Origin: a virus
Taxonomy: Duplodnaviria; Caudoviricetes
Virus record (IMG/VR): IMGVR_UViG_3300033121_001593
Coordinates: 64,001 to 128,000 of that record
DNA: 64,000 nt
Strand: one strand, 5' to 3'
Shown here: one piece after another, positions 29,110-61,955 of the stretch
How the letters are laid out: each line of letters begins with the position of its first letter
Numbering within the stretch: the stretch's first letter is position 1
Position numbers and translations under genes: made by a program
Notes under the pieces: model-generated
Seen by the model: the letters and a program-made list of their open reading frames with translations, nothing else
What the model was told of the DNA's origin: nothing
Databases searched by the model: none

Positions 29110-29258
29110 GGGCGGCGAGGCGCGTTGGCCGGCCCGAAATCGCCTTGACGGGCCGGCCATTCGTGCCCGCTACGGCCCAAAAACGGGGGGTAGACGGGCT
29201 TTTAGGGAATAGCCGGCCCGGTAGTATCGGCGGGGGCGTTACAGGCCCCTTGGGGCGC

Positions 29259-31195: not shown

Positions 31196-32647
31196 CTAGT
31201 CACCATCCTCCTCATTTGCGCCGGCCACGTTTGCGCCCTCGAAGGCCGCAATGAAGTGCATGAACTGAGACGACCAGCCGGTGACCTCAGCGGTCCAGAC
31301 TCCCGCATAGCTCACGCCGCGGCTATGGCCCGAAATGTCGGTGATGTAGTTGCGGGCGGCCCATGGCTCCGGCATCCGTCCGCTATCATCCATATCCTGC
31401 GAGTCGCTGAAGACGATCAGCCGGTCAGCCGGGGCACCGCGCCGATCCGCCTTGATGAAGTCCAGGGCCTGGCGGGTGAAGATACCACCGCCGCCCAGAC
31501 GCCCGGAGGCGCGCCTGATCTCGTCCATCAGGGCAAAGCCGCGCCGACGCTTCAGTAGCTCGGTCTGGTGCGTCTGCCCCAAATCGCTGCCGGCAGTAGC
31601 ATAGACCTGGACCTTGACCGCCTGCTCGGCCGCCAGCATGGCCAGGGCCGCGGCGGCGTCCAGCCAGGAAAGGTCGCTCTGCCCGGAGAGCCTGCCGTGC
31701 TCCATCGATCCCGATACGTCAACAACGAGCACGGTCTCGCCGGCCAGCTTGGGGGCGGTCGCCAGCGCCCGGAACATCATAGCCTCGATCTCGCCCTGCC
31801 AGCGGGGCGCTGCCCGGCCGGCGGCGATGAAGTTGATCGGCAGCAGCCAGCGCGCCGGGGCCGTCTCGAAGTAGGCCGCGATGGCGGCCCGGTCCACGCC
31901 CTCCCGCTCCATCAGGGCCAGGTTACGCAGGAAGGCCAGGCCGGGCAGCCGGCGCTCGGCCATCAGGCGCTCGAACGTCTCACGCTTGTTCGCTCCGGCG
32001 CTCAGGGCCACCTCCCAGGTATCGGGGGGCGTAACATGGCCGGCCTTTAGCTCGGCCAGGGCGCGGGCGTTGCGCGGCGTCGGGACCGGGTGCAGCAGGC
32101 GCGCGGCGTCTCGCAGGGTGACGGCGTGCCCCTTGCCCTGGTACTTGGCCAGTTGATAGTCATCGAACTGAGCAAAGGCGTGAGCCAGCCCGGTCTTGAG
32201 TTGGCTGGCCAGCGGCGCGCGCGGCTTGCCGGCGGGGGTCGGGTTTTCCATGGCGTAGAGCGTGAGGGCCTCGGTGATGCCGTCGGCGCGCCCGACGATC
32301 ACGGGTAACAGCTCGGCCACCAGCGCCCGGTGGGCGGGGTACTTGAGCATCTGGATTGCCACGAACAGGGGAACGTGGCGCAGGCCCTGTTCGTTGCGCG
32401 CCTGCCAGGCCAGACGGGCGACGACCGCCGGCTCGACCTCAGGCACCAGCTTGCGGATCACGTCCGCGGTCACCGCGCCGCGCTCATAGAATTTGTCCTC
32501 CCAGAGCAGGTTAGAGAGGATCGCTCGCGCCAGCAGGGCGTCCGATCCCTGCAGGGCGGCCGGCGCGCCCGCGCCTCCGGCCACGCGCGCCTTGGGGTCC
32601 ATCGCGCCCTTGCGGCTCGGCTTGGGGGTTGGCTTGTTGGTTCGCAT
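31196..32647 (-). CDS. rsr: Ro60/Rsr RNA-binding protein (TROVE + vWA domain)
   Basis: Motifs 'LLWEDKFYE', 'ARNEQGLRHVP', 'FDDYQLAKY', 'PDTWEVALSAG', 'LRNL', vWA MIDAS 'VDVSGSM' and 'FSDSQD'. Confidence 0.93.
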   Translation of the reverse strand: MRTNKPTPKPSRKGAMDPKARVAGGAGAPAALQGSDALLARAILSNLLWEDKFYERGAVTADVIRKLVPEVEPAVVARLAWQARNEQGLRHVPLFVAIQMLKYPAHRALVAELLPVIVGRADGITEALTLYAMENPTPAGKPRAPLASQLKTGLAHAFAQFDDYQLAKYQGKGHAVTLRDAARLLHPVPTPRNARALAELKAGHVTPPDTWEVALSAGANKRETFERLMAERRLPGLAFLRNLALMEREGVDRAAIAAYFETAPARWLLPINFIAAGRAAPRWQGEIEAMMFRALATAPKLAGETVLVVDVSGSMEHGRLSGQSDLSWLDAAAALAMLAAEQAVKVQVYATAGSDLGQTHQTELLKRRRGFALMDEIRRASGRLGGGGIFTRQALDFIKADRRGAPADRLIVFSDSQDMDDSGRMPEPWAARNYITDISGHSRGVSYAGVWTAEVTGWSSQFMHFIAAFEGANVAGANEEDGD

Positions 32648-32662
32648 CGCTGACTCCTTGGC

Positions 32663-32697
32663 AAAAAAATACGGCCCGCAGATAAATCCGGGGCCGT
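32663..32697 (-). terminator. Intrinsic terminator between the Y RNA array and rsr
   Basis: ACGGCCC...GGGCCGT stem followed by ATTTTTTT, ~15 nt before the rsr ATG. Confidence 0.7.
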
Positions 32698-32711
32698 GCT
32701 GGATACTTGCT

Positions 32712-32806
32712 GCGGCAGGAACTTTCAGCCGATACGGGGAGACGGGTTTGATCCCGTCAGCGGTTGCCCGCCCTTGACCGAAGTAACCGTATCGTCACCA
32801 TGCCGC
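32712..32806 (-). ncRNA. Y RNA-like unit 4 (longest)
   Basis: GCGGCA/UGCCGC end stem, UGGUGA/AAAGUUCC internal loop, CGAUACGG/CCGUAUCG stem, GGUUACUUC motif, two small hairpins. Confidence 0.75.
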
Positions 32807-32834
32807 GCGGCCCGTTGGGGCCGGCATACCGAAA

Positions 32835-32875
32835 GCGGGAATTTAGGGTGGCTCCTGGCCTACCCGCCGGCACGC
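32835..32875 (-). ncRNA. Minimal Y RNA-like unit 3
   Basis: GCG-UGCCG...GGGU-hairpin-ACCC...AAAUUCC-CGC. Confidence 0.55.
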
Positions 32876-32883
32876 GGCCGGGG

Positions 32884-32928
32884 GCGAGAATTTTTCAAGA
32901 TTCGATGAACAGGAAACCTTCACCACGC
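32884..32928 (-). ncRNA. Minimal Y RNA-like unit 2
   Basis: GCG-UGGUG-AAGGUUU/GAAUCUU stem-GAAAAAUUCU-CGC. Confidence 0.55.
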
Positions 32929-32937
32929 TTCGGGATA

Positions 32938-33009
32938 GCCAGCCGGGAACTTTGAGACTGTGACGGGAACACTCAAAGGCGAAGTAACCGCCACAACACC
33001 ACGACTAAC
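32938..33009 (-). ncRNA. Y RNA-like unit 1
   Basis: GUUAGUCG/CGGCUGGC end stem, UGGUG/AAAGUUCC loop, UUGUGGCGG/CCGUCACAG stem, GGUUACUUC motif. Confidence 0.7.
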
Positions 33010-33016
33010 TGACCTA

Positions 33017-33044
33017 ATGATACCACAACCATTCGACTTGTCAA
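33017..33044 (-). promoter_or_regulatory. Promoter of the Y RNA-rsr operon
   Basis: TTGACA-N16-(TGn)TATCAT. Predicted TSS ~33010, at the 5' end of unit 1. Confidence 0.75.
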
Positions 33045-37355: not shown

Positions 37356-37694
37356 CTACTTCGGCTCGTAGCCGATCAGGCTGGCGATCTGGCGTATCAG
37401 ATCGTAGCCTTCCTCGGAGTAGACGTTGACCCGGCGCACGGCGTCGCCGATCCCGTGGACGTTGGCGCGCATCCACATCACGCGCTCGACGCCGGCGGCA
37501 TCCAGGACGGCGTCGCCGGGGGTCTTCTTGTTGACCTTGACGCCATTCTCCAGGACCCAGCTTATCTTAGTTTCGGCGACGACCTTCAGCGGGGCGTAGC
37601 ACTCGCGCTCGATGATGCGGCCGCGCTCGTCATAGCGGCGGCGGTTCCCGTCATAGATATAGACCGTTTCGCCCAGGCCGATTTGCAGTGTCAT
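37356..37694 (-). CDS. Hypothetical small beta-barrel protein
   Basis: AAGGAG RBS; start MTLQIGLGETVYIYD. Confidence 0.6.
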   Translation of the reverse strand: MTLQIGLGETVYIYDGNRRRYDERGRIIERECYAPLKVVAETKISWVLENGVKVNKKTPGDAVLDAAGVERVMWMRANVHGIGDAVRRVNVYSEEGYDLIRQIASLIGYEPK

Positions 37695-45861: not shown

Positions 45862-47055
45862 TCATTCATAGTCGCCGGCCCGCCCGACCAACTCGACCAG
45901 AAAGGCGATGGTGGCCTGAGCGTCATTGTAGACGGTGAACTCGTCGCGCCGCGGCCAGGAGATCGGGTTAGGCGGGGCGACCGCGTGCATCGAGTCGTAC
46001 AGGCCCTGGGCGGCCCCGTGGTGCCCGTCGTCCTGGCGGACGGTGACCTTTTTCTCCCGGCCCAGCTTGACCGAGAATACCGCCATGCAGGCCGGATCAT
46101 CGCTGCTACCGCCGCCCCAGCGTGCGCCCTTCAGGCTCGTGTAGCTGATCGACTTATGCGCCCAGTCGGCAAAGTACAGGCCCTTGCCCAAGGCCCAGCC
46201 GTTTGAGTATGACGGGCGGATAACTAAGCCCTGCGTCATGATCGACCAGAAGTTCGGCGTCTTGCTACCGTGAAAGAGCAGCCGGCCTTTTTCGCCGGGC
46301 TTCCAGGCGTCATACTTGGCCTGCGTGGCGAAGTGGATCACCCGCCAAATCCGGCCGATGTTCGGCTTGCTCTGAGCCTCGACCAAGGCCAGGACTTGCG
46401 CCCGCTCAGCCGGCGTCGCCTCCCGGATATCGAGGCCGATGGCGTCCAGCACCGTTTGATCGGCGGCGGTAGGCTGCGGGCGTGCCCTCAGGCTGGCGCG
46501 TAGCTGATCGACTAAGGCTTGCTCGTCGGCGAGCTTTGCGCCGATCACATGCCGCGCCGCGCCGGCCGGCAGTAGCTCGTCGGCGACCTTGCGCATCTTA
46601 CGGGGCAAGACCCGCCATAGCTCGACCAGGCCGGCGTTGACGGCGCTGACCGTCATCTGCCCGTTGAGGCCGCCGATCCGGTCCAGGATGCGCTGCGCCT
46701 CGACTAGCTGCGCCTCGGTGATGCTCTCAGCGTCCGAGTAGCTGGCGGCGATTGAGACGCCCGCCTTTTGCTGCAGCCAGTCCACCAGCCAGCCGACCGA
46801 GCCGGCCAGGGGCTTGAAAGCGACCGCGTCCAGCGTGCGCTTTTGCGCCGTCATATCCCGATAATCGTGCTTCTCCCGCGTCCGAATCGTCGGGTTCCAC
46901 TCCGACATAGGGAATACCTTTGACTGGCCCGCCGTGCCCACCCGGCCCCAGCGCGCCGTGAAGGTCGATCCCGCGGGGTCGGCCTTCATCTCGTAGAATT
47001 TATTGGCGTTGGCGTCCGCCGCCACCTTGATCCCGTACCAGAAATCTGTCGTCAT
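45862..47055 (-). CDS. Poly(ADP-ribose) polymerase-like ADP-ribosyltransferase (WGR + helical + catalytic domain)
   Basis: 'NANKFYEM...ARWGRVG' WGR domain. H-Y-E triad in LLFHGS, GKGLYFAD and DEFTVYN. Confidence 0.9.
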   Translation of the reverse strand: MTTDFWYGIKVAADANANKFYEMKADPAGSTFTARWGRVGTAGQSKVFPMSEWNPTIRTREKHDYRDMTAQKRTLDAVAFKPLAGSVGWLVDWLQQKAGVSIAASYSDAESITEAQLVEAQRILDRIGGLNGQMTVSAVNAGLVELWRVLPRKMRKVADELLPAGAARHVIGAKLADEQALVDQLRASLRARPQPTAADQTVLDAIGLDIREATPAERAQVLALVEAQSKPNIGRIWRVIHFATQAKYDAWKPGEKGRLLFHGSKTPNFWSIMTQGLVIRPSYSNGWALGKGLYFADWAHKSISYTSLKGARWGGGSSDDPACMAVFSVKLGREKKVTVRQDDGHHGAAQGLYDSMHAVAPPNPISWPRRDEFTVYNDAQATIAFLVELVGRAGDYE

Positions 47056-50937: not shown

Positions 50938-50977
50938 ATATTGCTACTTGACAAACTGAATGATATCATGATATAAT
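50938..50977 (+). promoter_or_regulatory. Promoter P9 (cca), same variant as the rtcB promoter
   Basis: ATATTGCTAC-TTGACA-N18-TATAAT. Confidence 0.82.
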
Positions 50978-55998: not shown

Positions 55999-56414
55999 CG
56001 ACGATCACCGAGGATCAGCGCCGGCAGATCGCCGGCCTGCCGCAGATGTTTGTCTATGGCCGGCCGCGCTGGCCAGTCGGGATCGGCCCCGACTGGATCA
56101 TCCTGAACGGCCCCGGCTTTCTCTATGGCCAGCGCGTCTGGGAAGGCGACGGCGCTTTCGGCCGCTGCTTTGCAGCCCTCGATCCTGAGGACCGCGACAC
56201 GCCCGACTCCCTGGCCGCCAATCTGGCCGGCCGGCCGGCGCGGGTGACGGTCGTCAGCGAGGCCGCCGCTGCCGAGGATTATGACCGCTGGCGGGCCGCC
56301 AAGACCGCCCGTTATGCTACCGCCGCCGCCATGCCGGAAGATGCCCTCCGGCGGGCTTGGATTGACGAAAGGCAGGAATCGGAATGCCGCAAATGGCGCA
56401 ACCAACCGACCTAA
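55995..56414 (+). CDS. Hypothetical protein
   Basis: ATGA overlap. Confidence 0.55.
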   Translation: MTTITEDQRRQIAGLPQMFVYGRPRWPVGIGPDWIILNGPGFLYGQRVWEGDGAFGRCFAALDPEDRDTPDSLAANLAGRPARVTVVSEAAAAEDYDRWRAAKTARYATAAAMPEDALRRAWIDERQESECRKWRNQPT

Positions 56415-57040
56415 CCCCCACCGGCTGGCGGCCCTCACCGACCGACTGGGATATGATCCCCGGCAACGAACACGTCCGACGCGCTATCGAGATCGCCTTC
56501 ATTGGCGGGCACTCGATCTTTATCGTCGGGCCGCGCGGGTCATACGCTGAGGACATGGCCCACTTTGCGCGCGGCCGCGGGATGCGGGCCTACGCCGCCT
56601 GGCCCTGCGCCTGCGGCCGGTCGACCGGCGAGTTCTGCGATACGTGCGGAACTAACACGCAGGACGAGTATATTCGCTCGCACTATCCACCCGCCGGCGC
56701 GGTGGATATCTACATCGAGGCCCGCGCCGAAGTAGGACCGCGCGGCCCCGGCGAGGCCTGGCGCAACGCGGTACACCGCGCCAATGACGCCGCGCCCTGG
56801 ATGAATGAGGACGGCGCAAAGATGGAGCTTGATGCCGCCGGCGTCTCCCTCCTGCGAGCCGCCACGGCGATGCTGGCGCTAGACGAGGACGCCTGCAGCC
56901 GGATCAAGCACGTCGCCCGCACGATTGCCTGCGCCGCCCACTCCGAGTTTATTCGCACTCCGCACCTGGCGGAGGCTATTCAGTACAGACCGCCGGCCTA
57001 TGTAGTGACCGTCACCACGCCGGCCAAGGAGGACGACTAA
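56384..57040 (+). CDS. Truncated ComM/YifB (Mg-chelatase-like AAA+) derivative with a degenerate Walker A
   Basis: 'GNEHVRRAIEIAFIGGHSIFIVGPRGS', 'PCACG' and C-terminal 'VARTIA...HLAEAIQYR'. Confidence 0.75.
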   Translation: MPQMAQPTDLTPTGWRPSPTDWDMIPGNEHVRRAIEIAFIGGHSIFIVGPRGSYAEDMAHFARGRGMRAYAAWPCACGRSTGEFCDTCGTNTQDEYIRSHYPPAGAVDIYIEARAEVGPRGPGEAWRNAVHRANDAAPWMNEDGAKMELDAAGVSLLRAATAMLALDEDACSRIKHVARTIACAAHSEFIRTPHLAEAIQYRPPAYVVTVTTPAKEDD

Positions 57041-57486
57041 TGCCACGCTTTGCCGCCCCTGTTAGCCAGGAGACGCTGCTCGATTGGGTCCGTGACTTCG
57101 TGACCCGCCCGCAAGTCGAGAGCGACCGCCGCGGCGGATGGGCACCGGTCAGCGACGCCGATCTGGGCCTGCTGGACCGGATCATCGAGAATATGATCTG
57201 CATTCACTGGGCACCGGACGCGGACGGCGACCGGCCCATCGAGTCCTATCTGAATGACCGGACGCAGTTCGAGCCATGGCCCTGGGTGCCCGTGCCCTAC
57301 TGGCACGGGGCCGGCGACATAGAGGAATTCGTGACGGCCACGATGCGCAACGCGCAGGCCGCCACCGCCCGCTTTGCCCTGGCCCTGGAGTTTGCCGAGA
57401 GCCGGCGCGAGGCCGCCGCCAAGGCCGACCGTGAGGCCGCCGCCGCCCTGGCCCTCGCCGACATAACCGACGCTTCCCTGCCCTGA
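57040..57486 (+). CDS. Hypothetical protein
   Basis: GGAGG RBS, TAATG overlap. Confidence 0.62.
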   Translation: MPRFAAPVSQETLLDWVRDFVTRPQVESDRRGGWAPVSDADLGLLDRIIENMICIHWAPDADGDRPIESYLNDRTQFEPWPWVPVPYWHGAGDIEEFVTATMRNAQAATARFALALEFAESRREAAAKADREAAAALALADITDASLP

Positions 57487-57512
57487 GAGACCCCGGCCGC
57501 CGGCCCCGCCTC

Positions 57513-57543
57513 AAAAAGCCCGCTTGACAAGAGCGGGCTTTTT
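57513..57543. terminator. Bidirectional intrinsic terminator
   Basis: AAAAAGCCCGCT..AGCGGGCTTTTT. Confidence 0.7.
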
Positions 57544-57549
57544 CGCGCC

Positions 57550-57622
57550 AACCTTAAAAGTTTGCGACTTTTTGTCAAAAGGCCCAAAACCGCTTGACAA
57601 ACTAAACGACCTGTAGTAGAAT
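57550..57622 (+). promoter_or_regulatory. Early promoter cassette P12 (drives the ncRNA)
   Basis: AACCTTAAA...TTGACA-N17-TAGAAT. Confidence 0.88.
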
Positions 57623-57640
57623 GACTATAGGATAAAGAAA

Positions 57641-57978
57641 GGCATTAACAACCGCATAGGGAAAGGCCCACGGGGCTGCAAGGCCCCACTCGCTAAGTAG
57701 GCTGCTAGGACAACACAAGCCATAAGCACTCGAAGCCCGGCAACGGGCGGCCCTCTCAGGGTAAGTCAGACAAACGGCGGCTAGGCCCGGAAGACCTCAC
57801 AAAAGGCAGGGTATCGGCAGGCAGGCACTGAGAGTTCGGGAAGGCGGGATGAAGATACTAGCGGAGACGTTGACCGGATAAGAAGCTGAGCGCCAGGGGA
57901 CGAACCGGGCGAAGGTGAAGGACCAACAGCGGAAAACCAAGGCAAGGCGAGAGGCACCCCTAAGCGGCGGTTAAGGCC
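57641..57978 (+). ncRNA. Large structured ncRNA of unknown family (~340 nt)
   Basis: No ORF of 60 aa or more. 5'/3' ends pair, with nested long-range helices and two GCAA tetraloop hairpins. Lies behind a strong promoter. Confidence 0.72.
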
Positions 57979-58005
57979 CCAAGGATCAGCGTAAGGACCA
58001 AACCA

Positions 58006-58332
58006 ATGACCACCGACCCCAGCAATATCTACACGCAGACCCCGCCAAACGCGACGACGCTCGGCTACTGGATGCGCCAGGCCGCTAATGACTATCCACG
58101 CGTCACGCGCCAGATCATTCAGGCCGGGGTCGACGCCGTCGACGCGGTGGCCGCTCAGGGCGCGGATGCAGCGCCGGCAATCATAGCCGCCGCCTGGCGT
58201 AAGATCGTGGAGGCCATTGACGAGTATCGCGGGAACACCTGCACGAGCTGCCGAGGGCGCGGGCGTTCCGAAAACGTCGAAGCCTTTTGGCCCTGCCAGG
58301 ATTGCGCCCCATTCGCAGACGAGATGAACTAG
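58006..58332 (+). CDS. Hypothetical protein with a C-terminal Zn ribbon (1 Leu in 108 aa)
   Basis: AAGGAC RBS; CTSCRGRG...CQDC. Confidence 0.7.
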   Translation: MTTDPSNIYTQTPPNATTLGYWMRQAANDYPRVTRQIIQAGVDAVDAVAAQGADAAPAIIAAAWRKIVEAIDEYRGNTCTSCRGRGRSENVEAFWPCQDCAPFADEMN

Positions 58333-58524
58333 GAAGGACCCCCGACCATGACAGACCTACTCCCGATCGGCCGACTACATGAGCTTTTGATTATCAAGAA
58401 TGCGTTTGACGCTGTGCCGCTTTCGCCTGCACAGCAAAGGCTCCACGACGCGATGAAGGCCCGCCAGGCCGCCAGCACAACTAGCCAGGCTCGCTGACGA
58501 CGATCACAAAGGACCCCCGTCCCC

Positions 58525-58797
58525 ATGCCGCTCACGCTAACAAAGACGATCACCGTAACCCTCACCGCCGAGTGGTGTAGATACGAATTCCTCCCGATGA
58601 CGCCGGAGTTCAGACGCCAACGCCGCGGCCTGGACGATCCAATGGATAAGTGCTTTTTCTGCGGCCATCGGTTCAAAGATGGCGAGATGATGTCACTGGC
58701 CAGGATCATCGGCCAAGGCGGCAACAGGATTCTTTGTCAGGAATGCGCGGGTGAATTACTCGCCAGCCAGGAAGTTACCGAAGGAGCGATAGAATGA
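58525..58797 (+). CDS. Small Zn-finger protein
   Basis: CFFCG...LCQEC; AAAGGAC RBS. Confidence 0.65.
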   Translation: MPLTLTKTITVTLTAEWCRYEFLPMTPEFRRQRRGLDDPMDKCFFCGHRFKDGEMMSLARIIGQGGNRILCQECAGELLASQEVTEGAIE

Positions 58798-59096
58798 CCA
58801 GAGCAGACACGTTAGCTACCCCCGCCCGGATCGACCAGGCCGCCGCCCAGGAACTGATCGACGCCATCGAGGCGTATACCGCAGCCGCGGAGCGTATGGT
58901 GCTGGCCAACGGAGAGGACGACGAAGCCGTCGATACAACCAACCGCGAATGTCTGACGGCGCAGCGCCGGCTAGAGGCCGCGTTCGTCGCCGCCACCGGC
59001 TGGACCGTAACGTTTCACCCCGCCGAGTATGGACGCAGGGAGAGTGAGCCAGTCACCGCCCGACCAAGCGTCCCGCCCTACTGGACTATCGCATAA
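58794..59096 (+). CDS. Hypothetical protein
   Basis: AAGGAG RBS, ATGA overlap. Confidence 0.6.
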   Translation: MTRADTLATPARIDQAAAQELIDAIEAYTAAAERMVLANGEDDEAVDTTNRECLTAQRRLEAAFVAATGWTVTFHPAEYGRRESEPVTARPSVPPYWTIA

Positions 59097-59117
59097 CGCC
59101 CAAGGAGAAGCAATACC

Positions 59118-59303
59118 ATGGCCAGAACTAACATGCAGACCGGGACCGTCGCGGAAGATGTAACCGTTAAGCTCGATCAGGGCGGCGGAGTATCCTACTC
59201 GATCAACCTTACAAAGGGCAGCCCGATCACCCTGATCGTCATCGACAATTCGCCGCGCGGCTATCGCCAACCGGCCGCGCCCAAGGAGGATACCCCATTT
59301 TGA
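59118..59303 (+). CDS. Hypothetical protein
   Basis: AAGGAG RBS. Confidence 0.55.
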   Translation: MARTNMQTGTVAEDVTVKLDQGGGVSYSINLTKGSPITLIVIDNSPRGYRQPAAPKEDTPF

Positions 59304-59491
59304 AGTCCGAATACAAAGCCCTACTGTCAGACGTTCGGAGCGCCTACGCCGAAACCACCGAAACCGCCCTGGCCCTGTCCAGAGCACAAGACGCTTATGC
59401 CCGCGCGGCCGCGCGGGCGGACGTCGCCGTCCAGGCCCTCACACGGTACGTCGAAAGCCTGGAAGTCCAGATCGAGGACCCGCCGTCATGA
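59300..59491 (+). CDS. Hypothetical protein
   Basis: GGAGG RBS, TTG start overlap. Confidence 0.5.
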   Translation: MKSEYKALLSDVRSAYAETTETALALSRAQDAYARAAARADVAVQALTRYVESLEVQIEDPPS

Positions 59492-59883
59492 ACGAACAGG
59501 AAGCCGCCGCCTGGGGCCGCCTAGAGAACGCCCTGCGCCTGCGCGACATGGCCGGCATCACGAGCCAAGCCGGAGTGATGGTCGCTCAAAAGCGCGCCTA
59601 CAAGCGCCGCACGCTGGCCGGCCTCACGCCGAACGAGGCCGCCAGCCTGGTACGCGAGGCGCAGGCCGCCGAGGACCGCATGATCCGCAACCTGACGCCG
59701 GAGGACTATGTAGCCTCCGACAAGGCCGCCCGGACGCTGGTCCAGGAAGGCGTCTGCGTCTACTACGCCGGCAAGGCCGACCTACTGAGCGCGGTCTTGC
59801 GCCGGCAAGGCGAAGTTACCCGGCACGCCGTCGGCGACTCGCTGCTTGGGATCACCTACCGCCTGGAGGCGCTTGAAGGATGA
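59488..59883 (+). CDS. Hypothetical protein
   Basis: ATGA overlap. Confidence 0.6.
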   Translation: MNEQEAAAWGRLENALRLRDMAGITSQAGVMVAQKRAYKRRTLAGLTPNEAASLVREAQAAEDRMIRNLTPEDYVASDKAARTLVQEGVCVYYAGKADLLSAVLRRQGEVTRHAVGDSLLGITYRLEALEG

Positions 59884-60713
59884 ACGATAAGCTGAACGAT
59901 CATATGATCGTTGCCGTCTTTTATCAGCGCGGGGCGAGTGGCTTCTATAAGCCCTACTCGATCTGGCGGATCGATCAAATGGGCCGGCCGGCCGGCCTGT
60001 GGACCGTCGACTCGACGTGGAGCGACGCGACGACCAGTGACTATTACCGCGGCTATCTAAATCCTGGCCCGCAGACATACTCCCGCCGGGCGGAGGCCAT
60101 CAAAGAGGCCCGCCGCGCCGCCAAGCTTTCTGGCCTGGCCGTCGACGTAAATGACCGCCTGTACAGCGACCTGTTCGGGCCGGCTGTCGTCTGCGCGATT
60201 TGTGGCGCGCAGCTACCTAGCCGCGGCTGGGAGCCAAAAATCTGTAAAGGCTGCCAGGTGATCCACGAGCACGGACTGCGCGCCCTGGGCGACAAGCAGG
60301 CGTATATGGTCGGCCCTCACCCCGGCAACGGGCGCGCCATGGAAGGGCACAGAGTCCTCTACCCCCTGCCCGATCTATTGGCCGCCCTCACCGGGTCCAT
60401 CGTGCGAGAAAAGCGCAGCGAACGCGCCGAGAGGTTCGGTGATTCTCCGAAGAAAGAAGGCCCTAAGCAGACGGTCGGCTATCGCAGAGAAGACTCTTAC
60501 TGGGGCGGCGACATGGTGGTCGATCTGACGCCCGCTCAGGCCGCGGCATGGACCGCGGCCGTCGAATGGATACAGGCCGAGATCGATAGGACCGAACGAG
60601 TCGCCCTCGATCAGGGCACCCGCCTGCTGACCGGCCTGGCGGCCGGCACGCTATCGCCTGAGGACTTCGAGCCTCAAATCATCCAACTGAGAAAAGGACG
60701 CCCGCTGCGATGA
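59880..60713 (+). CDS. Hypothetical protein with a central Zn finger
   Basis: CAICG...CKGC. Confidence 0.65.
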   Translation: MNDKLNDHMIVAVFYQRGASGFYKPYSIWRIDQMGRPAGLWTVDSTWSDATTSDYYRGYLNPGPQTYSRRAEAIKEARRAAKLSGLAVDVNDRLYSDLFGPAVVCAICGAQLPSRGWEPKICKGCQVIHEHGLRALGDKQAYMVGPHPGNGRAMEGHRVLYPLPDLLAALTGSIVREKRSERAERFGDSPKKEGPKQTVGYRREDSYWGGDMVVDLTPAQAAAWTAAVEWIQAEIDRTERVALDQGTRLLTGLAAGTLSPEDFEPQIIQLRKGRPLR

Positions 60714-61108
60714 CACAACCAACCCCCGGCCCGCATAGCGCCGGCACACAAGACACCAAGATTGCCGACTGCATCCTGGCCCCCGGCGCGCTGCTGCTGG
60801 GTATGGCCTTCTTTGACGGCGACCCCGACGAGAACCCCAAAGACGAGCCGGGCGTGCGCTGGATCACCAGGGAGGAGGCCGTTGCCAACGCTCGCCTCTG
60901 GTCAGCGGCCGGCGACCTGTTGGCCGTCGCCCTGGATCAAACCGCCGTCGAGGCACGCGTCCGCGCCCTCACTGAGGTGATCGAGGACTGGACGCAGGCG
61001 ACCCCCGATCAAGTCACCGAGATCAAGGTCATTGGCGAGGAGGTCAGACGCTTGAAAGATGCCCGCGCGGCCGCTATCGCCAAGGCTATAGGAGGCGCTG
61101 AACTATGA
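60710..61108 (+). CDS. Phage protein of the 'TPGP...ANARL.AA' family
   Basis: TPGPH...EAVANARLWSAAGDLL...AAIAKA. Confidence 0.68.
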   Translation: MTQPTPGPHSAGTQDTKIADCILAPGALLLGMAFFDGDPDENPKDEPGVRWITREEAVANARLWSAAGDLLAVALDQTAVEARVRALTEVIEDWTQATPDQVTEIKVIGEEVRRLKDARAAAIAKAIGGAEL

Positions 61109-61590
61109 CCCGCAAGAACGCCGCAACGAGGTTTGTATTCGGGATCGCCCTGGTGACAATCCTTGCCATCGCCGGCCATGGAGTCGCCTTTGCGCAGCAA
61201 GGCCCGGACACGGAAACGCCGGCCGGGAGCCGCATCTACATGCCTCTCGCGCAGATTGGGCCATCGGGATGCGGCAGCGCCGGCGGAAACGGAAAGCCCA
61301 TCTGGACATACGTCACGGGGCAAGGGATCGACGTCTGGATCACCAGCCGCTGCCCGGCGCACGTTCACATCTGGGTAAGGGTTTGGTACTCAGGCCCGTC
61401 CTGCCTGCAAGGATATTGCCAAACGTCCTGGGCCTGGATGACGGAGGACTGGGTGATAATCCCGAAGGTTGTCACGGTCGAGGCAACGAACGAAATTCAT
61501 ATCAACGAGTTTGTCGAGTTCGTCTCGGTCATGAATATACCCTTCAGCCTAGACGTGTACCCCTGGCCTCCAACGGAGAACGTAAAATGA
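61105..61590 (+). CDS. Secreted/exported hypothetical protein
   Basis: N-terminal signal peptide ending in AFA, followed by 'IYMPL'. Confidence 0.6.
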   Translation: MTRKNAATRFVFGIALVTILAIAGHGVAFAQQGPDTETPAGSRIYMPLAQIGPSGCGSAGGNGKPIWTYVTGQGIDVWITSRCPAHVHIWVRVWYSGPSCLQGYCQTSWAWMTEDWVIIPKVVTVEATNEIHINEFVEFVSVMNIPFSLDVYPWPPTENVK

Positions 61591-61955
61591 CGGCTGGCCA
61601 ACCGCTCCCCGGCCCGTATCGGCCGGACGGGAATTACATCCACTTTGACACGCCAGACGCCGGCCTACCGACGCTGCTGGCCCGGCTTTACGACACGTCA
61701 GACCGCAGCCCGGAGGCGCTTGTCGCCACCACGCGTCTGATGGCCGCGTCCTGGGAGATGTACCAGGCCCTGCTAGCCGAGGACGACTTTAACATGCGCG
61801 TCGCCGCCGTTACGAGTAGCATGGACGCGGGCGACCCCGCTTCATCCTGGCAGCCCGCCCTGGATGAGCTGACCGCTTTGGCGAGGCGCGTCACCCGCCT
61901 ACGCCGGGACGCCCTGGCCAAGGCACAAGGCCGCCCGGTCAATATTGCTACTTGA
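61587..61955 (+). CDS. Paralog of 60710-61108
   Basis: LPGPY...EALVATTRLMAASWEM...ALAKA. Confidence 0.62.
   Translation: MTAGQPLPGPYRPDGNYIHFDTPDAGLPTLLARLYDTSDRSPEALVATTRLMAASWEMYQALLAEDDFNMRVAAVTSSMDAGDPASSWQPALDELTALARRVTRLRRDALAKAQGRPVNIAT

Follow-up and report, generated by a model that had tools for sequence, protein, structure and literature searches.

A putative family of large structured RNAs directly behind an early promoter of uncultivated phages

To our knowledge, few bacterial or phage RNAs longer than ~300 nt possess a conserved, intricate fold, and most of the large RNAs of this kind that have been solved are ribozymes, ribonucleoprotein cores or self-assembling cages. ROOL (~580 nt) and GOLLD (~800 nt) RNAs are encoded by stand-alone genes. 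Shorter RNAs are part of phage early transcripts: put of phage HK022, with ~70 nt and two stem-loops, acts in cis in antitermination, and the CI RNA of P4 and the C4 RNAs of P1/P7 are antisense regulators of ~70-80 nt with targets located downstream. Y RNAs measure 80-130 nt, lie within ~4 kb of the Ro60 gene and are characterized by the motif GNCGAAN0-1G close to the 5' end and by tRNA-like D and T arms (PMC4201824). A catalogue of structured RNAs from IMG/VR has a stated range of 29-151 nt and required at least three IMG/VR regions per RNA (PMC10690425).

Here we analyze an element in a stretch of 64,000 nt (the window), corresponding to bases 64001-128000 of an IMG/VR record of 143,318 bp with an estimated completeness of 97%, which derives from an uncultivated phage. 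The element matches no described RNA family; its position is like that of HK022 put, P4 CI and P1 C4, and its size and style are like those of GOLLD and ROOL. In common with the latter two it is a large multi-helix RNA of tRNA-bearing phages, with GNRA-capped hairpins and invariant junctions, and like them it has no assigned function so far; in contrast to them, it matches the Rfam models neither in sequence nor in structure, is at most about half their size and lies within an early-operon 5' leader, immediately after the promoter. Like put, it is non-coding and folded and would be part of the operon transcript as the first product of a strong phage early promoter, but it spans 275-397 nt and 15 helices, shows no sequence relation, and is followed by no terminators that we could identify as targets of read-through. 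With P4 CI and C4 it shares the arrangement of an RNA gene within an untranslated early-operon leader, whose release would need processing; however, there is no Rfam match to C4, and no long complementary stretches were seen in the phage genome other than those expected by chance. Similarly to the RNAs of the IMG/VR catalogue, it is a conserved intergenic phage RNA backed by covariation, and many of those also lie just upstream of genes; the size range stated for the catalogue (PMC10690425) sets the present RNA apart, as it has at least 275 nt, and exact-motif scans revealed no further copy in IMG/VR. The likeness to the Y RNAs YrlA and Yrn1 lies in the phage encoding both Ro60 and RtcB and in the RNA ends pairing into a long stem.

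From comparison of related phages, we consider the element very probably a real, conserved and structured RNA. It appears to represent a family of large structured phage RNAs that had not been described before and that has good comparative support.

Position and composition of the module

The locus comprises the following features, with positions given in the window:

57513..57543, plus strand: intrinsic terminator hairpin of the preceding transcription unit, a stem followed by a T run
57594..57622, plus strand: early promoter of the sigma-70 type, TTGACA-17-TAGAAT, with 11 of 12 consensus matches
57629..57644, plus strand: leading part of the generic early leader, ATAGTTAGATAAGC-like, with the transcript start presumed from the -10 box
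57645..57974, plus strand: structured RNA module of 330 nt, delimited by the outermost bases of closing helix P1
57975..58005, plus strand: generic translation-initiation part of the leader, CAGCG-T-AAGGACC followed by ATG, as in other early cassettes
58006..58332, plus strand: first gene of the unit, 108 aa, without known family and not a fixed partner of the RNA

The original prediction of a strong early promoter immediately before the stretch is borne out by its near-consensus hexamers, and relatives carry TTGACA-17-TAAGAT or TTGACA-17-TATACT at the equivalent place. The description of the stretch as purine-rich and devoid of a 60-aa ORF also holds: no ORF exceeds 19 aa on the plus strand of 57629-58005, and the 374 nt of ORF-free sequence behind the promoter (A118 G123 C97 T36) contain the most purine-rich 350-nt segment of the 143-kb genome, with R = 0.649 compared to a mean of 0.504 and a standard deviation of 0.034 (~4.3 sd). 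Inside the element G exceeds C, and in the flanks C exceeds G.

The genome contains ~20 other early cassettes with leaders of 37-55 nt, which begin with a ATAGTTAGATAAGC-like sequence and end with CAGCGAAAGGA followed by ATG. Here, and in every relative, the module sits between two such generic leader parts, ~16 nt from the presumed start and ~31 nt before the start codon. Its length is ~330-335 nt in the studied phage and varies from 275 to 397 nt across relatives. About 20 near-consensus early promoters, e.g. at window positions 50948, 52419, 54482 and 61952, share an upstream element of the AACCTTAAA type; among the protein-gene cassettes of this promoter family, only that at 57594 has a long ORF-free leader. 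The 350-nt segments that rank next in purine content lie outside the window, at G000:C1:29100-31500 and 34300, and fall in the other long ORF-free, promoter-driven stretches; the former stretch extends over 2.4 kb after a promoter at 29122 and the latter is the tRNA array, neither resembling the element in sequence. RNA genes of this phage may be purine-rich in general.

Relatives, conservation and mosaic genomes

Homologues were reached through the downstream 108-aa protein and then through an 88-aa neighbour, and the contigs obtained were inspected upstream of the gene. Homologues of the 108-aa protein in metagenome assemblies have 61-98% identity, and most have an ORF-free stretch upstream. 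The element was thereby found in about six phage lineages with three sequence types, always directly behind a TTGACA-17-TAnnnT promoter and, as judged by nhmmer and the covariance model, in one copy per genome. As these lineages are related and mosaic, they represent few independent events.

Identity in the RNA core amounts to 97-99% for L020, L021 and L008 and to 85-87% for L029, L016 and L025, whereas the DNA of the 108-aa gene is 74-86% identical in the same comparisons, in which the range for the RNA core is 85-99%. A non-coding stretch that is better conserved than the adjacent coding gene is under constraint. In L017 and L019, the RNA is ~86% identical over the common part and contains a 65-nt insertion. 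Comparison with window positions 56008-58352 showed that in L008 the upstream genes and the RNA are ~97% identical and the 108-aa gene 74%, and that L017, with ~98% identity in both flanks, has an RNA of the other sequence type. The boundaries between such segments are sharp in L008, L017 and L020, which indicates recombination at or inside the RNA; because the genomes are mosaic, part of the similarity can be attributed to shared ancestry.

The gene behind the RNA is the 108-aa gene in most lineages, an 88-aa gene in L025 and a 59-aa gene in L032. In L025, the 88-aa ORF lies between the RNA and a 109-aa gene (L025:2722-3003), and the last 24 nt of the leader, its ribosome-binding region, are duplicated before both genes. 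A homologue of the 88-aa protein is encoded on the 58.6-kb contig of the lineage defined by protein P0005, which had seemed to lack the RNA, as its 108-aa-type gene has a similar promoter with an ordinary ~38-nt leader. Directly after the 88-aa homologue, this contig has a second promoter, TTGACA-17-TATACT, behind which lie a 275-nt version of the RNA (L032) and then the unrelated 59-aa gene. Neither the 88-aa nor the 59-aa protein has a homologue in the studied genome. In the L004 lineage, the 108-aa gene stands behind a similar promoter with a plain ~38-nt leader and no module. As a divergent copy occurs elsewhere with another gene, the RNA is bound neither to a single locus nor to a particular downstream gene.

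Beyond these lineages, DNA and protein searches of GenBank phages gave no relative of the element or of its neighbours, and the portal protein has at most 33% identity to that of any isolate. Searching IMG/VR via the neighbouring proteins returned nothing usable, a search with RtcB retrieved only an unrelated low-GC phage without the element, and a representative search for remote homologues of the 108-aa protein added no new lineage. Exact-motif scans of IMG/VR viral contigs, metagenome contigs and genome contigs revealed no further copy; the sole match among genome contigs, L031, is a 22-nt chance match inside a gene. The RNA thus appears confined, among the sequences searched, to a small group of uncultivated phages. 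Within the studied genome we found neither paralogues beyond chance k-mers nor antisense targets with extended complementarity beyond chance. A 14-mer complementary to 37511-37524 was discarded as an antisense target, as it lies outside any tRNA gene and is close to chance expectation.

Fold and covariation

The elements of the fold in the studied phage are:

57645..57661, plus strand: 5' strand of closing helix P1, TTAAC-AA-CCGC-A-TAGGG, pairing with 57958-57974; inner two segments kept by compensatory changes in L032
57672..57687, plus strand: hairpin P2 with a GCAA tetraloop; one compensatory change of C-G to U-A
57702..57708, plus strand: 5' strand of long-range helix P3, CTGCTAG, pairing with CTAGCGG at 57858-57864; three sequence versions, all paired, with 4 of 7 pairs covarying
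57729..57734, plus strand: 5' strand of helix P4, CTCGAA, pairing with TTCGGG at 57835-57840; two compensatory pairs in L032
57735..57748, plus strand: hairpin P5 with a GCAA tetraloop; two covarying pairs
57753..57834, plus strand: variable central domain, with helix P6 (57753-57762 with 57825-57834) as its closing stem; P6 has three compensatory pairs
57874..57942, plus strand: 3' sub-domain, in which a helix of 57874-77 with 57937-42 encloses three helices; near-invariant in most lineages

The original prediction listed nine helices and hairpins, all of which are present at the positions given, with a single A.G mismatch, located in CGCTAAG/CTGAGCG. It further described the RNA as highly structured, a claim that receives support from comparative covariation but not from folding energy in the studied phage. 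The minimum free energy of the region, -119.8 kcal/mol, is no better than that of shuffled sequences (z = -0.41; core alone, z = -0.14). Considering that short G-C helices are expected in any sequence of this length with 60% G+C, the case for the fold is made by comparison. The L032 copy folded alone adopts the same architecture, with z = -1.6 for the whole and -3.1 for the core. Owing to the G.U pairs and to the poorer folding of the reverse strand (z = +1.25), the fold is assigned to the plus strand.

Across 13 homologous sequences, the originally predicted pairs are standard in 94.2% of cases and include 4 double changes, compared to 22-50% and no double changes for slid partners. The structure obtained with RNAalifold is 97.2% paired on the 13-row alignment A2, with 6 double changes. 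When RNAalifold was run without constraints on ten full-length homologues, it returned the nested fold, in agreement with the large multi-junction architecture originally proposed. A hand alignment of L032 with the studied phage contains 12 compensatory and 6 one-sided compatible changes, and whole helices differ in sequence between the two, as follows (studied phage, then L032):

UAGGG/CCCUA replaced by CACGAC/GUCGUG
CCGC/GCGG replaced by ACCG/CGGU
CUGCUAG/CUAGCGG replaced by CUCUCAG/CUGAGAG
CUCGAA/UUCGGG replaced by CUCAGA/UCUGGG
CUCUCAG/CUGAGAG replaced by CUUCCG/CGGAAG

The full length of L032 could be aligned, at 211 bits, to a covariance model comprising 337 positions and 89 pairs. In the nine-row model alignment 97.9% of the cells are standard pairs, and compensatory double changes are found in 18 of the 89 pairs, distributed over 10 of the 15 helices; shuffles gave 6.5±1.6 (0 of 500 reached the observed value) and slid controls 0-2. 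An alignment fitted to a model is biased toward the model's own structure; nonetheless, the hand alignment and the independent fold of L032 agree with it. Compensatory changes in several helices, the generic hallmark of a structured non-coding RNA, are therefore present. The homologue search that had been suggested as a check on the prediction yielded relatives in metagenome assemblies, and these carry compensatory pairs.

Seven of the nine originally proposed helices have compensatory support. The two exceptions are the outer segment of P1, TTAAC/GTTAA, which is invariant in the other relatives and absent or unpaired in L032, and the helix CGCTAAG (57691)/CTGAGCG (57886), which is paired in 72% and whose 3' partner region is missing from L032. 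An RNAalifold helix of 57689-57695 with 57947-57951 was dropped because it is broken in L032. An 11-nt GAAA receptor, for which CCUAAG/AUAGG in P1 had been considered, was rejected because the strands are fully Watson-Crick paired.

Core junctions are invariant and purine-rich in the homologue alignment, and variation is seen in two domains. In the central domain, the tetraloop of the hairpin at 57793-57807 varies between ACAA, GAAA and UCAG, and the 65-nt insertion of L017 and L019 follows 57783. This insertion (L017:2720-2790; also in L019) is a partial duplicate of the neighbouring AAGACCTCACAAG hairpin, and the adjacent helix strands are rewritten. In place of the 3' sub-domain, L032 has a 9-nt loop on the same closing helix; the sub-domain is therefore accessory. 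The expandable central domain and the replaceable 3' sub-domain are as expected of a folded RNA in which peripheral domains surround a core.

Several short repeats were noted. The motif GGGA(U/C)GAA occurs twice in the conserved 3' half, at 57846-57853 and 57897-57904; both copies read CGGGAUGAA in the second clade, and the copy at 57897-57904 forms the loop of a covarying hairpin. In 57639-57977, there are 8 copies of AAGGC versus 1.7 expected from dinucleotide shuffles and 4 copies of AGGCCC versus 0.36 expected, with only some copies kept in relatives.

Known RNA families and candidate functions

A search of the whole window with Rfam 15 (4227 models) gave no match at the gathering threshold. 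The models covered include those for RNase P, tmRNA, group I/II introns, 6S, GOLLD, ROOL, raiA, OLE and HEARO, as well as riboswitches, self-cleaving ribozymes, CsrB/Rsm and C4. The sole match within the element at E ≤ 10 is a 13-bit snoRNA-like match that can be attributed to chance, and four divergent homologues had no match on the element at E ≤ 1. ARAGORN detected no tRNA, tmRNA or tRNA-like part in the window; the ten tRNA genes of the genome are all found at 32-38 kb. The Rfam comparison proposed with the original prediction is thus negative for known families, and the statement that the RNA cannot be assigned to tmRNA, RNase P or a group I intron stands for every variant searched. Two further assignments were rejected. 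The sequence GGGAAAGGCC resembles CR-I of RNase P, but the RNA is U-poor and has no partner strand for the P4 helix, in addition to having no Rfam match; a CsrA sponge is not indicated, as GGA occurs 13 times compared to ~12.8 expected from base composition.

We favor, at about even odds, the view that the module is an autonomous, early-expressed structured RNA, probably a protein-binding scaffold or decoy, which is co-transcribed with whatever gene follows. Host RNA polymerase would transcribe the module first, from the near-consensus early promoter, so that the RNA would be made at a high level right after infection. The RNA would fold into a closed, GNRA-stabilised multi-junction body, in which a long irregular closing helix joins both ends and encloses two GCAA hairpins and nested long-range helices. 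Transcription would run on into the following gene, the module being a portable RNA gene inserted in the standard ~45-nt leader, and the RNA would either be released by cleavage near the closing helix or be active while attached. It would act in its own right and in trans, most likely as a compact scaffold or decoy that binds a host or phage protein.

No terminator was found on the plus strand within or just after the module, so that in physical terms the RNA is a 5' UTR. The leader has the generic Shine-Dalgarno region, and no convincing helix that would sequester it was found. Given that the gene behind the module varies by lineage and that the 108-aa gene also occurs without the module, we infer that the module probably does not regulate that gene.

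An autonomous RNA of this kind would be a candidate for an RNA-based function in infection, in takeover or counter-defence. The phage lineage is rich in RNA-handling genes, encoding Ro60, RtcB, a CCA-adding enzyme, a tRNA array and a PARP-like protein. With this background, a defined promoter, a compact core, one dispensable and one expandable domain and natural variants that already indicate which helices are important, the RNA is a tractable candidate. Even if its role were limited to that of a leader element, its size would be unusual.

A cis-acting role is possible but less likely. The leader could protect the 5' end, mediate put-like antitermination, block Rho loading or constitute a very large riboswitch. 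Consistent with this, the module invariably lies between the promoter and the first ORF, close to the start codon and without a terminator of its own; the excess of G over C in the element, set against that of C over G in the flanks, is the opposite of a Rho loading site; and invariant junction nucleotides are typical of ligand- or polymerase-binding RNAs. However, the lack of a constant downstream gene argues against cis regulation, as does the plain leader before the 108-aa gene in the L004 lineage, and the downstream genes are unrelated between lineages. As to a riboswitch, neither a terminator/anti-terminator nor a terminator after the element was found, and the single candidate for Shine-Dalgarno masking, GGCCC/GGACC, is a weak pairing and is broken in L025. 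As to antitermination, the position matches that of HK022 put but the size and fold do not, 275-397 nt being far above put RNA or known aptamers; no convincing plus-strand terminator is present at 58000-61900, i.e. the operon has no notable terminators that need read-through. The closing helix also begins ~16 nt from the presumed 5' end rather than at the end.

Self-processing, in which the module would be a ribozyme or an excised, possibly circular RNA whose ends, or the two leader halves, might be joined by the phage RtcB, appears improbable. The paired ends, the flanks of 16 nt and 31 nt that together make up a generic leader, and the invariant core junctions are compatible with such a process, and RtcB is encoded 4 kb downstream and is also found near the RNA in L013. 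On the other hand, no known family of introns or self-cleaving ribozymes matches, the closing helix does not form a bulge-helix-bulge motif and its outer segment is lost in L032; moreover, the leader is non-coding, so excision is not required. We regard as similarly improbable the far-reaching version of this idea, a new class of large catalytic or self-organising RNA that would be cut out of the leader at the closing helix, with RtcB sealing its ends or the two leader halves, to give a stable, possibly circular RNA particle that would cooperate with phage RNA-repair proteins in the minutes immediately after infection.

It is very doubtful that the RNA is a Y-RNA-like partner of Ro60 and that the phage Ro60 protein binds at the closing stem. 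The phage does encode a TROVE+VWA protein (31196-32647, minus strand), the two RNA ends are paired in a long stem, a feature shared with Y RNAs, and GGCGAAG at 57907 matches the motif GNCGAAN0-1G (PMC4201824). Nevertheless, the RNA has ~330-335 nt and is encoded 25 kb from the TROVE gene, compared to 80-130 nt and ~4 kb for Y RNAs (PMC4201824); ARAGORN and Rfam detect no tRNA-like arms or other tRNA-like part; and the motif resides in the dispensable 3' sub-domain, with ~0.7 chance occurrences expected from base composition. A likelier place for a Y RNA is the 363-nt ORF-free leader of the Ro60 gene itself (window 32648-33044), which is preceded by its own promoter, TTGACA-16-TATCAT, at 33044; this leader has no Rfam family match at E ≤ 1.

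It is most unlikely that the element acts as DNA or as a primer, either through an R-loop that primes replication, as with ColE1 RNA II or T4 oriF, or as a conserved DNA site. The strongest purine and G skew of the genome directly behind a strong promoter, in one copy per genome, could be read in this way, but the cumulative GC skew has no turning point at the locus, the genome position varies between lineages, and neither an adjoining AT-rich unwinding element nor iterons are present; strand-specific G.U pairs and compensatory changes point to selection on the RNA fold.

Hardly credible is the notion that the element has no function as RNA and is a hidden small protein gene or a decaying remnant: the minus-strand open frames of 47-110 codons in every homologue are expected because that strand is A-poor, their frames and sequences vary, the 10-codon ATG frame with a Shine-Dalgarno-like motif that starts at 57849 changes in length and sequence between clades, and the element is better conserved than the neighbouring coding gene and has substitutions that preserve base pairs. 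Homologues differ by indels of 1 and 2 nt that shift the frames, no ORF on either strand is conserved in frame and sequence, and the longest plus-strand ORF is 19-27 aa among them, so a protein gene is excluded.

A protein with WGR and PARP catalytic domains is encoded at window positions 45862-47055 on the minus strand. The L032 lineage also encodes a WGR+PARP protein (L032:6122-7291), 1.5 kb downstream of its RNA copy.
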